Part shown: positions 19,163-46,180 of the stretch, one piece after another
Layout of the letters: every line of letters begins with the position of its first letter
Position numbering within the stretch: position 1 is the stretch's first letter
Virus record (IMG/VR): IMGVR_UViG_3300043077_000092
DNA: 64,000 nt
Direction: 5' to 3' (one strand)
Source of the DNA: a virus
Lineage: Duplodnaviria > Caudoviricetes
Notes under the pieces: generated by a model
What the model saw: the letters and a program-made list of their open reading frames with translations, nothing else
What the model was told of the DNA's origin: nothing
The model's database searches: none
Position numbers and translations under genes: made by a program

Positions 19163-19255
19163 AATTTATTTCACCTCTTTCTATATAATATTAATCTTTT
19201 GTTCCATACGTTAAAATAGAAGCAACCTAAATACTCACTATATAAATATACAAAA

Positions 19256-19297
19256 AAAATATAGAGGGGTGACTTTAATCATCTCCCTCTATATTTT
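19256..19297 (-). terminator. Bidirectional terminator closing hairpin-peptide module A
   Basis: AAAATATAGAGGG..CCCTCTATATTTT inverted repeat. Confidence 0.75.
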
Positions 19298-19324
19298 TAA
19301 TAATTAATGACGTATCTTAATACA

Positions 19325-19537
19325 CTAAGATAATGCATTCAATATGAATCGCATATCCCGAGAAAATGATTCGGGGTCATCATTAATGTGAGCACGGTTA
19401 TATTCGTACTCACTCATGAAACTTTTGGTCGTGGTCGGACTTCGAGTTTCACGATATTGGTTCTGGGAAATCAGAGATCCTGGAACAACACCAACAACAG
19501 AGTTGTTGATATTACCAAATAGATGGTCAGTTATCAT
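19325..19537 (-). CDS. Small peptide, hairpin-module family copy A (70 aa)
   Basis: RBS GAAAGGAGGTGA; paralogous to the 43501, 43845 and 45908 ORFs; synonymous substitutions relative to copy D support coding. Confidence 0.8.
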   Translation of the reverse strand: MITDHLFGNINNSVVGVVPGSLISQNQYRETRSPTTTKSFMSEYEYNRAHINDDPESFSRDMRFILNALS

Positions 19538-19584
19538 ATTAGGTCACCTCCTTTCATGATAACTGACCGTTTGTTGTTTCTAGG

Positions 19585-19767: not shown

Positions 19768-19890
19768 ATTCATTACCTCCATTAGAACGGTTTACTTGTT
19801 TCCATATAAGTATTTAATATAGTAATGAATATTTACACAATAAGAATTTCCCATATCGATACAAAAAAATAGAAGGTGGGACAAACTGAG

Positions 19891-43440: not shown

Positions 43441-43448
43441 ATATATTA
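43441..43448 (+). promoter_or_regulatory. Early-type phage promoter core ATATATTA (representative of 7 copies)
   Basis: Recurs upstream of non-structural genes; resembles the phiKZ early promoter core TATATTAC. Confidence 0.6.
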
Positions 43449-43500
43449 GATATGAGTAAGCAAAGAAAGATTGGCTTACCAAGAAAGGAGGTGAATCCTC

Positions 43501-43707
43501 ATGGCAAACCAAAAAGGGTTTGGTAACACGGCATCATTACCGTGTTACCAACCAGTCAACACCCAACCTAGTTGGGTACATGGATATCCGAGCACCAATC
43601 GGACGTTCATGGATGAGTACGAATCACATCGTGCTCATGTTAATGACAACCCTGAGATGTTTGCACGAGACGTAAGTGTCATTATGAACTTACTGAGTGC
43701 AATGTAG
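43501..43707 (+). CDS. Small peptide, hairpin-module family copy B (68 aa)
   Basis: RBS GAAAGGAGGTGA; RTFMDEYESHRAHVNDNPEMFARDVSVIMNLLS; early-type ATATATTA at 43441-43448. Confidence 0.8.
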   Translation: MANQKGFGNTASLPCYQPVNTQPSWVHGYPSTNRTFMDEYESHRAHVNDNPEMFARDVSVIMNLLSAM

Positions 43708-43723: not shown

Positions 43724-43766
43724 AAAAATATAGGGTGGATGAGTTATTGTCCACCCTATATTTTTT
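43724..43766 (+). terminator. Bidirectional terminator closing module B
   Basis: AAAAATATAGGGTGGA / TCCACCCTATATTTTT. Confidence 0.8.
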
Positions 43767-43844
43767 GTGTAAAGCAACTTTGTTTATTATAAAGTTCATA
43801 GATAAAAAACAATGCTGATTTGACAATAGAGGAGGTGATTCCTT

Positions 43845-44090
43845 ATGGCAAACCAGCATTGTTGTGATAATGGTGGCATGTACCATTACCAAGTTCGTAC
43901 ATCTCCCAGTTATGGGAATCATAGATATTCGAGCACCACCGATCGAACATTCTTAGATAAATACGAATATGCGTCTTATCTTGAACGCATTACTGTAATG
44001 TATCATGAATTTCACAAAATTAAGAATGGGTGGGTAACTTCGGTTCCCACCCATTTTTTTGTATTACTATTTCGGATTTCAACCTACTAG
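43845..44090 (+). CDS. Hairpin-module family copy C, probably degenerate
   Basis: MANQ start and STTDRTFLDKYE match copy B, but the conserved C-terminus is lost and the frame runs through the terminator at 44025-44060. Confidence 0.5.
   Translation: MANQHCCDNGGMYHYQVRTSPSYGNHRYSSTTDRTFLDKYEYASYLERITVMYHEFHKIKNGWVTSVPTHFFVLLFRISTY
44025..44060 (+). terminator. Intrinsic terminator closing module C
   Basis: AATGGGTGGG / CCCACCCATT followed by a T-tract. Confidence 0.75.
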
Positions 44091-44165
44091 ACAATCTGCA
44101 AATATATTAATTATATAGGATACAGAAACCACGGAATCTTAAATATAAAAGAGGAGGTAAGATAT

Positions 44166-45866
44166 ATGAAATATCTTAAAGAGGCAGCGTTCAAAACAAA
44201 ATCGGTGTATATAATCGCCGTGAGTGTAGTAATCTCTATAGTATGTACTACTATAAATACCGAGATACTCATTTGGATTTCCAATGCAGTTACTAATTAT
44301 AAAGATCCAATGCATTGGGTTAATCTGGTTATAATCGGTTGTGTTTCTATAATAGTACTTGCTATAGTTAGACCATGGTTTAATAATATAGGAAACCATA
44401 AAGTCTACACTTACCTTTATAATCGACTTACTGACAAGTTGGTTTGCGCTGATTATGATTTGTACACGAAGTTCTCGCCGGGTGAAATAATCACTACAGC
44501 AGAAAGTTTATGGAACATAACTCGTCTAGTCATATTGTCACTTAATATGATTAGAAATCTGATTACATTCATCATTACTATGATCGCAATCGGATTAATT
44601 GCGCCTAAGGTAATCGTTCCTATTGGTATTGTCTATATAATAGCTGCAATTGTATTGTATATTGCAACTAAGAAATGGAACGAGGCTGACGAAGAGTTAG
44701 ATTCTAATAAGCGTAAACGTAATAGGGAACTTGACGAGATAATAAATGGATTTGCTGAGGTACGCTCATTTAGTCATGCAGTTGAGCATCATCAGAAGTC
44801 GATAACAAGCATGAACAACAGTGTTCTCTCAATGATTGGAAAGAGAATCAGGGTTGATTCATTCATAACTGTTTGGTATCAGGTAATTGATGGTGCAGTT
44901 ACAGTCGGCATATTGGCATACGTTATCCTTGCACTGAATAATGGTTCTATGACATCATCTGCAACGGCAGTGACTTTAGCAATGTATGCTTGGAGATTGA
45001 TTGAACCTATGGCTTCATTTGTTGACTCTCTTAGCGAAGTATCTTCATGTAAAGCACCGTTACCAAAATTTGAACGTGTGATGAATTATGAGAATACTGT
45101 ACCAACTGGTTCAATTGATCTTGAGTCATTTGACAGGGAAATTCAGTTCAACCATGTAGATTTCTCATACGATAAGTCTAGTTACGTATTGAACGATGTT
45201 TCCTTCAGTGTAAAGAAAGGAGAACATATCGGAATATGTGGACCAACAGGCGGAGGAAAATCTACGTTGTTAAAGCTTGTTCCAAAGTTCTATGATGTAA
45301 CTGGTGGTTCGATCACAATTGATGGGATTAACTTAAAGGATCTTACAACTACATCAGTTAGAGAGCATATCGGGATAGTACACCAGTCTCCATACATTTT
45401 TGATGGTTCTATTATGAGCAATATTAAGTATGCTGGTTTCAATAGAACGTCTAGTGGAAACTCAGTTACTGATGCAGAAGTTATTGATGCTTGTAAGAAA
45501 GCGTCAATCTATGATTTTGTAATGTCACTTCCAGATAAGTTCGAAACCCAGGTTGGACCAAGAGGTCTCAAACTTTCTGGTGGGCAAAAGCAAAGAATAG
45601 CATTAGCTCGTTTATTCATCAGTAATCCAGATATCATAATATTGGACGAAGCTACTTCAGCGTTGGATAATGAAACGGAGAGATTTGTACAAGATTCTCT
45701 AAATGCATTTAGAGATAAGACTATGATAGTTGTTGCTCATCGATTATCAACTATAAAGAATTCAGACAAGATTATTGTAATTGATGAGCATCGCGTTGTG
45801 GAACAAGGTACTCATGAGGAACTCATCGAGAAGAAAGGATTATATGAATCCATGTATAATAACTAA
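44166..45866 (+). CDS. ABC exporter, fused transmembrane + ATPase (MsbA/ABCB type)
   Basis: N-terminal TM helices; Walker A GPTGGGKST, signature LSGGQKQR, Walker B IIILDEATSALD, H-loop VAHRLST; early-type ATATATTA at 44102-44109. Confidence 0.95.
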   Translation: MKYLKEAAFKTKSVYIIAVSVVISIVCTTINTEILIWISNAVTNYKDPMHWVNLVIIGCVSIIVLAIVRPWFNNIGNHKVYTYLYNRLTDKLVCADYDLYTKFSPGEIITTAESLWNITRLVILSLNMIRNLITFIITMIAIGLIAPKVIVPIGIVYIIAAIVLYIATKKWNEADEELDSNKRKRNRELDEIINGFAEVRSFSHAVEHHQKSITSMNNSVLSMIGKRIRVDSFITVWYQVIDGAVTVGILAYVILALNNGSMTSSATAVTLAMYAWRLIEPMASFVDSLSEVSSCKAPLPKFERVMNYENTVPTGSIDLESFDREIQFNHVDFSYDKSSYVLNDVSFSVKKGEHIGICGPTGGGKSTLLKLVPKFYDVTGGSITIDGINLKDLTTTSVREHIGIVHQSPYIFDGSIMSNIKYAGFNRTSSGNSVTDAEVIDACKKASIYDFVMSLPDKFETQVGPRGLKLSGGQKQRIALARLFISNPDIIILDEATSALDNETERFVQDSLNAFRDKTMIVVAHRLSTIKNSDKIIVIDEHRVVEQGTHEELIEKKGLYESMYNN

Positions 45867-45907
45867 AAATAAACAAGTGATCAGTAAATTGAAAGGAGGT
45901 GATTCCT

Positions 45908-46117
45908 ATGATTACTGATCACTTGTTTAGTGATCCCAACAAGACAAGTCTTGTTGGGTCGGTTCCATACTCAATGAGTAATAGGAACCAGCGTCATGAT
46001 ACTCGGTCCCCAGATTTGAGTTTCATGACAGGGTATGAGTCTAATCGTGCCCGAATAAGTGATAATCCCGAAGCATTTTCTCGGGATATGCGTTTCATAC
46101 TAAACGCATTATCTTAA
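45908..46117 (+). CDS. Small peptide, hairpin-module family copy D (69 aa)
   Basis: ATG 45908 after GAAAGGAGGTGA; MITDHLF..FSRDMRFILNALS ends identical to copy A. Confidence 0.8.
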   Translation: MITDHLFSDPNKTSLVGSVPYSMSNRNQRHDTRSPDLSFMTGYESNRARISDNPEAFSRDMRFILNALS

Positions 46118-46140
46118 TGTATTAAGGTATATCACAATTT

Positions 46141-46180
46141 ATAGGGGAGATGGTTTTATTCATCTCCCCTATATTTTTTG
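46141..46180 (+). terminator. Terminator closing module D
   Basis: ATAGGGGAGATG / CATCTCCCCTAT followed by ATTTTTTG. Confidence 0.8.

Follow-up and report, generated by a model that had tools for sequence, protein, structure and literature searches.

The window, a stretch of 64,000 nucleotides, is part of a 220,062-base phage record (the 220-kb genome of a giant gut-type phage, with repeated ends) and carries on its plus strand an operon headed by a complete ABC exporter gene (ABC_membrane and ABC_tran domains; 44166-45866), found here in a jumbo phage and under an early promoter. That promoter lies at 44103-44118 (+), fits the AR9 consensus TATATTA-N7-R(+1), and would serve both the exporter and the last gene of the operon, a 69-aa ORF under purifying selection that we call unit D (45908-46117, +). 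Four nucleotides past the exporter's stop codon begins an 18-bp perfect stem (45870-45929) around the RBS and start codon of unit D; read on the minus strand, where a U-tract comes after it, the same stem is a candidate antisense terminator with an anti-SD loop. At the other end of the ORF a late promoter motif faces backward (ACA-N6-TAA, 46109-46120, −; predicted +1 at 46110), and from it would run a late antisense RNA of about 250 nt (45862-46110, −), covering ORF and RBS and starting with a 5′ hairpin. The sense terminator is at 46140-46179 (+).

Three further units lie in the window. Unit B has an early promoter with a predicted +1 at about 43456 and a 5′-terminal hairpin (together 43442-43479, +), a 68-aa ORF (43501-43707, +) and a bidirectional terminator (43725-43768, +) whose tail holds only a near-match, with a 7-nt spacer, to the antisense late promoter; its RBS-enclosing stem (43471-43512, −) pairs fully on the minus strand only, with two G-U pairs, and a U-rich tract comes next. 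Unit A, encoded on the minus strand (70 aa, 19325-19537) as the second gene behind an early promoter at 19821, has a bidirectional sense terminator (19252-19294, −), an antisense late promoter (19322-19333, +; predicted +1 at 19332) and an RBS-enclosing stem (19517-19578) that is better on the plus, or antisense, strand (three G-U pairs) and has a U-rich tail. Unit C, which an earlier note on this DNA had listed with a ~70-aa ORF and a strong terminator, has lost most of the conserved region and its frame to a 47-nt deletion, leaving a broken ORF of 81 aa (43845-44090, +) that reads through its own terminator (44027-44062, +); the antisense late promoter (43990-44001, −; predicted +1 at 43991) is intact despite the broken ORF, and the RBS-enclosing stem is again a candidate antisense terminator (43808-43863).

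The earlier note described a four-copy family. All four modules are present, but the genome holds seven, the other three (E, F and G, at genome positions 206367(+), 4877(−) and 11119(−)) lying outside the window, and a scan of small ORFs for the cassette features, its thresholds set with the seven units known, returned exactly these seven. The RBSs, the terminators and the conserved C-half ascribed to the modules can all be found in the sequence, as can the hairpins listed for D and B and the synonymous differences between the conserved termini of A and D; the first hairpin of D, written with a 2-nt loop, shrinks to at most 10 bp. Early expression, also claimed, agrees with the promoter motifs, since stand-alone units begin with the early motif and a 5′ hairpin directly after it, and A and D each close an early operon. 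Unit G (genome 10800-10900, L003) has a very long end hairpin with a weak U-tract and more hairpins after it, and its backward promoter is a near-match only.

Beyond this genome, a profile search of 1.84 billion proteins gave 21 hits, of which 18 are small proteins that share the C-terminal motif, and the hits that were traced sit on phage-like or short contigs; no homologue was found in cultured phages or bacterial genome contigs, and pattern scans of viral contigs returned no family member. The relatives include at least four copies in one 227-kb phage and a five-unit tandem array (L019:1-1520) made up of two divergent peptides, two ORF-dead units and one intact member. One copy of the family (L011:1290-1610; G001 72528) has a GTG start and a 1-nt frameshift ahead of the conserved region, and in a related phage the site downstream of the ABC exporter that unit D occupies here (L012:3690-3960) holds a different run of long perfect hairpins and a 38-aa ORF only.

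The phage groups with the AR9/PBS1-like jumbo phages, which carry a virion and a non-virion polymerase, because its RNAP beta′ subunit is 34-35% identical to those of the Staphylococcus S6 and PALS_2, Listeria LPJP1 and Bacillus Goe21 jumbo phages. Its SD type would point to a Bacillota host; the closest bacterial matches of the ABC exporter are mixed and only 30-40% identical, many of them clostridial. The promoter motifs were derived from other genes of the same genome: the early motif is TATATTA-N7-R(+1), with a purine start 8 nt past TATATTA, and the late motif is ACA-N6-TA. Both match the promoters mapped in AR9, with like spacing (PMC5312081). Among 125 large ORFs, the late motif stands upstream of 34 on the sense strand and of 3 on the antisense strand, and the early motif is found at 27, giving the combination of AT-rich early and ACA-N6-TA late motifs upstream of genes that marks an AR9-type two-polymerase promoter system. 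Genome-wide, 26 of 45 predicted terminators end in a T-run and then GT, a tail specific to this phage. Judged by eye, the genome intervals 215466-217752 and 176829-178076 hold an RT-like ORF beside an Avd-like ORF, which together look like a DGR, and a tubulin-like ORF whose leader is structured.

The peptide and the folding of its coding region

That the peptide is under selection, as had been proposed, is borne out by its last 30 codons, where all pairs together give a pN/pS of 0.42 and the closest pairs 0.1-0.2, and where frame 0 is free of stops; the other five frames give values of 0.64-1.33 and contain stops in 14-19 of the 19 sequences. Third codon positions are the most variable. The units are in this sense a protein-coding small-ORF family, under purifying selection in one frame and with several diverged copies per genome. 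The peptides, 52-106 aa long across the family, are non-hydrophobic, as claimed (GRAVY mostly −0.2 to −0.9; best 19-residue hydropathy window at most 1.1), they have no membrane-spanning stretch, and their last helix is amphipathic. AF2/AlphaFold models are of low confidence over the N-half and contain a confident helix-turn-helix at residues 40-49 and 55-69; the C-terminus is predicted to be a soluble helical hairpin. The earlier view that no described family has this design agrees with searches of Pfam, PHROGs, NCBIfam, PADLOC and the PDB sequences, which gave chance-level hits and nothing significant; Rpb6/omega was considered as a relative and rejected, the PDB sequence hit being weak (E about 1) and sharing few motif residues. 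Fold searches reached at best Z 3.0 and TM below 0.4, with a 30-residue hairpin query that is too short to decide, and the ESM Atlas gave no usable hit.

The coding regions fold more strongly than permutations of their synonymous codons, as the earlier note had expected, with z of −4.0 for A, −5.7 for B, −2.9 for C and −6.1 for D. In all 16 of the 16 members tested, none of 100 synonymous shuffles reached the observed energy (z −2.9 to −7.6), against a coding baseline for this genome of −1.3 ± 1.2, with 7 of 80 fragments below −3; the variable N-half likewise folds above expectation in most members. Ordinary genes of the phage also fold beyond their synonymous shuffles (mean z −1.3), a general folded-mRNA bias. 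The statement that almost every nucleotide lies in a hairpin goes too far: minimum free energy structures pair 64-73% of bases, compared with 57 ± 5% in random windows, and the excess is concentrated in confident helices (confidently paired bases 40-65% in the units, 29 ± 10% in random windows).

Nor are the hairpins of different copies equivalent, as had been suggested; mostly they are not. When the conserved region is folded as an alignment, 5 pairs remain, with a covariation term of −0.14, and no body-wide consensus with covariation emerged; Rfam gave no match, and scans for tRNA and tmRNA returned nothing. Since covariation is missing from the coding hairpins of the 19 members, a function of its own for a conserved RNA fold, and with it the earlier idea of a dual-function RNA, is unsupported. 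Since the conserved region has no shared fold and shows little compensation, selection seems to act on foldedness itself rather than on one shape. Much of the folding would be accounted for by convergent late antisense signals, that is, by 5′ stems and terminators belonging to two RNAs of opposite strand, both predicted.

Late promoter motifs and a stem that favours the antisense strand

These convergent late antisense signals are the main feature of the units and were missed by the earlier account. Within −15 to +60 of the stop codon, an interval set after the first cases had been seen and applied to a short motif, the late motif occurs backward in 15 of 21 units, which are homologous, so that the counts are not independent, compared with 3 of 169 control gene ends. 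Among 14 ends that share the T-tail, 1 carried it; on the sense strand 1 of 21 units did, and shuffled sequence would give 2.0. The motif lies at −7, −2, +20, +22, +42 or +45 to +58 from the stop codon, and so many different offsets argue against one inherited accident; six of the 21 units, B and G among them, have no exact backward motif. The bases past the stop codon are conserved, and on the other strand they read as a late promoter, which in D, A, E and F has no opposite-strand gene upstream to serve. In units A, C and D the predicted antisense start falls at base one or two of a hairpin; the hairpin listed earlier inside the ORF of D would then be the 5′ stem of an antisense RNA. Both ORF-dead units of the tandem array, which were left out of the 21, keep the backward promoter and the antisense terminator, and one of them is without the U-tract of the sense terminator. 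Read from the sequence alone, the promoter and terminator signals of a putative cis-antisense RNA over ORF and RBS are strongly enriched.

There is a mapped parallel in AR9, where late promoters fire antisense to genes; in the part of Table S3 considered here, the start at 75478(−), opposite the 61-aa ORF g090, has the highest step height (PMC5312081). It resembles the present units in its promoter class, its backward orientation just past a small ORF, and its strength, as far as that part of the table goes, but g090 is not homologous, is single-copy and has a coding region that is not unusually folded (z −1.7), and a long hairpin soon after the start means that the RNA may not span the ORF. 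The antisense RNAs at AR9 g125/g126 were rejected as analogues because they overlie virion genes.

The 5′ end of the unit supplies a second line of evidence. With a strand-neutral definition of the stem, the RBS-enclosing stems show 17 A-C and 2 G-T oppositions on the sense strand, compared with a balanced 32 and 38 in controls, and wobble oppositions in the coding hairpins are balanced between strands. The 17 A-C mismatches of the sense strand become G-U pairs on the antisense strand, a bias with p of about 0.02 after rough de-duplication of homologous units. The stem is the only covarying one in the unit: the type of Watson-Crick pair varies at 15 of its 20 positions, the arms covarying with the first codons. 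On the antisense strand the hairpin carries the anti-SD in its loop and is usually followed by a U-rich tract, and stems scoring at least 12 were found at 1 of 144 other genes. About half of the units have no such stem, and there the antisense end is undefined. Sequestration of the RBS is predicted in A, C, D, P8, P9 and relatives, and not in B, E, F or G-type units. Units A and D and one relative have the start of the locking stem 4-7 nt past the upstream stop codon, which suggests translational coupling; the same position may also shield the upstream gene from the predicted antisense RNA. Pairing of the 5′ loop with the ORF start as a conserved pseudoknot was considered and dropped, as it fits the antisense hairpin better.

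Proposed timing by two polymerases, and its rivals

From the established features (selection on the ORF, the folding excess, the motif positions and the strand bias of the wobble pairs) we propose, with a probability of roughly 0.55, that each unit combines an early mRNA with a late, full-length cis-antisense RNA that silences it, the two being timed by the two phage polymerases. At entry the virion polymerase would make a short, stable early mRNA composed of a 5′ stem, a very strong SD, a hairpin-rich body and a terminator; it would encode a soluble peptide whose working part may be the C-terminal helical hairpin and whose most likely role is to bind a protein of the host or the phage during takeover. 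As soon as the non-virion polymerase is present, the late promoter at or just past the stop codon would yield an antisense RNA of about 250 nt across the ORF, ending in about half of the units in a terminator with an anti-SD loop, and this RNA would pair with its own mRNA, block the RBS, shut the peptide off and probably send the duplex to RNase III. A brake of this kind would be needed because an mRNA that is long-lived stays active after its transcription has ended. The D-type stem, perfect on both strands, should itself repress translation, so bulk early expression fits poorly unless an upstream ribosome opens the stem.

In its mode of action the unit would come closest to phage antisense timers, of which P22 sar is one; P1 c4/icd-ant is likewise a phage antisense RNA acting on its own phage's gene. 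In P22, sar lowers expression of ant during infection (PMC2629481). Both of these differ from the present units in being short RNAs directed at the RBS only, made by the host polymerase from a single locus of a temperate phage, with an antirepressor as target. Literature searches found no description of the design proposed here, and on our best reading the layout is like that of Ibs/Sib, with the two predicted RNAs split between two phage polymerases. The phage peptides (52-106 aa, soluble, with a predicted helical hairpin) differ from the Ibs membrane peptides, which are 18-19 aa long. What is alike in Ibs/Sib of E. coli is the multi-copy small-ORF repeats, the convergent transcription and an antisense RNA, here predicted, over the whole ORF and RBS (PMC4147584); there is no homology, and the two phage RNAs would come from different polymerases at different times. 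That a soluble, non-membrane protein can be under antisense RNA control is known from SymE/SymR and RalR/RalA, whose proteins are exceptions to the rule of hydrophobic type I toxins (PMC4147584), but those are single-copy nucleases, and the phage family has no Pfam or NCBIfam match.

The layout could also belong to a true type I toxin-antitoxin module, an addiction system in which the peptide would arrest or kill the cell unless the late antisense RNA were made continuously. We regard this as unlikely, although the five-copy Ibs/Sib loci, with an antitoxin over ORF and RBS (PMC4147584), have just this layout, and the multiple copies, the tandem array and the broken copies that keep their antisense signals all fit, orphan antitoxins being known (PMC11264685). 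The locked RBS of D-type units agrees with it too, as does the limited exact sequence shared between copies (at most 8-28 nt), which would limit cross-talk. The peptides, however, are not small hydrophobic membrane-spanning toxins: they have no transmembrane stretch, unlike almost all type I toxins, and the RBS is open in many units. It is because the hydrophobic-toxin feature is absent that we do not file the units as members of this class. If they did belong to it, they would penalise a host that degrades the phage DNA once early transcription has taken place, could maintain a carrier state, or could allow a resident phage to silence a superinfecting relative's early peptides.

A further possibility, to which we give little credence, is that the unit chiefly makes the late RNA, which would act in trans as an anti-SD small RNA and dampen the translation of many host or early phage messages, the peptide having a second, independent function. 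The antisense loop mirrors the 3′ end of 16S rRNA, the ORF-dead units retain their antisense signals, the antisense RNA opposite AR9 g090 begins with an anti-SD tract, and in a second peptide family of a related phage (G001) three tandem SD motifs give three unpaired anti-SD tracts on the antisense strand. Yet the simplest target of such an RNA is its own fully complementary mRNA, its body tracks the ORF with no conserved fold, and in the first family the anti-SD is partly paired inside the terminator loop.

The proposal of the earlier note, in which the fold of the early RNA would itself be functional (as a scaffold, a decoy or a nuclease-proof message) with no antisense transcript at all, now seems very unlikely. 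It would draw on the strong folding excess, on the sense strand folding better than the antisense strand in 13 of 20 coding regions, and on the many phage terminators that end in TTTTTGT, which is ACA on the opposite strand and could make the backward motif a by-product of terminator tails. Against this, only 1 of 27 such terminators in the genome completes the motif, and that one lies in a unit; in six units the motif sits at the stop codon, off the tail; the wobble pairs of the RBS stem favour the antisense strand; and no fold is shared. That the peptides are RiPP-like or signalling precursors exported by the adjacent ABC transporter is scarcely credible, for although the variable N-half and conserved C-half might be core and follower, and three units flank the exporter here, one unit also flanking such a gene in two related contigs, transporters are distant from most copies, the exporter is absent beside most of them and so is a neighbour rather than a constant part of the unit, no peptidase domain was found in it (44166-45866), no radical SAM enzyme, the one class of modifying enzyme searched for, was found in the genome, and the antisense signals would be left unexplained.

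The same layout in unrelated peptide families

The reading of an early mRNA under a late antisense brake can be extended to other families. Two related phages carry further multi-copy peptide families that are unrelated in sequence and lie behind a common early promoter block; their coding regions are folded as well (in G001, z −4 to −7.7), the tail of the terminator again holds a late motif facing backward, and several of their copies are broken, with sequencing error as a possible cause. Doubtful as the generalisation is, AR9-like jumbo phages may carry a class of cassettes with interchangeable early effector peptides, each licensed by a late, copy-specific antisense RNA. Such a class could serve as a dead-man switch where the host aborts infection, or could give competing phages a sequence-coded immunity against each other; the hypervariable N-halves would be identity codes and the ORF-dead copies orphan silencers. 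Two-polymerase jumbo phages are thought to time their genes by promoters alone, and a sense/antisense cassette would add a post-transcriptional layer. At least three undescribed multi-copy peptide families that apparently need silencing would be good candidates for effectors of host takeover or counter-defence.

The third family, in G002 (173970(+), 187713(+) and 86621(−); L047-L058), has the same layout, one copy with an in-frame TAG and another with a frameshift, for which decay, sequencing error or read-through are possible explanations. A 55-aa ORF of G002 with this layout was set aside as a homologue, homology not being detectable (probability 1.5%). The second set, in G001 (17360(+), 52587(+), 160942, 174956, 184146 and 195660(−); L034-L046), gave no PHROG match and shares the layout and a common early promoter block of about 45 nt; in three of its copies the leader contains short upstream ORFs and three SD motifs in tandem, and one copy is nearly leaderless.
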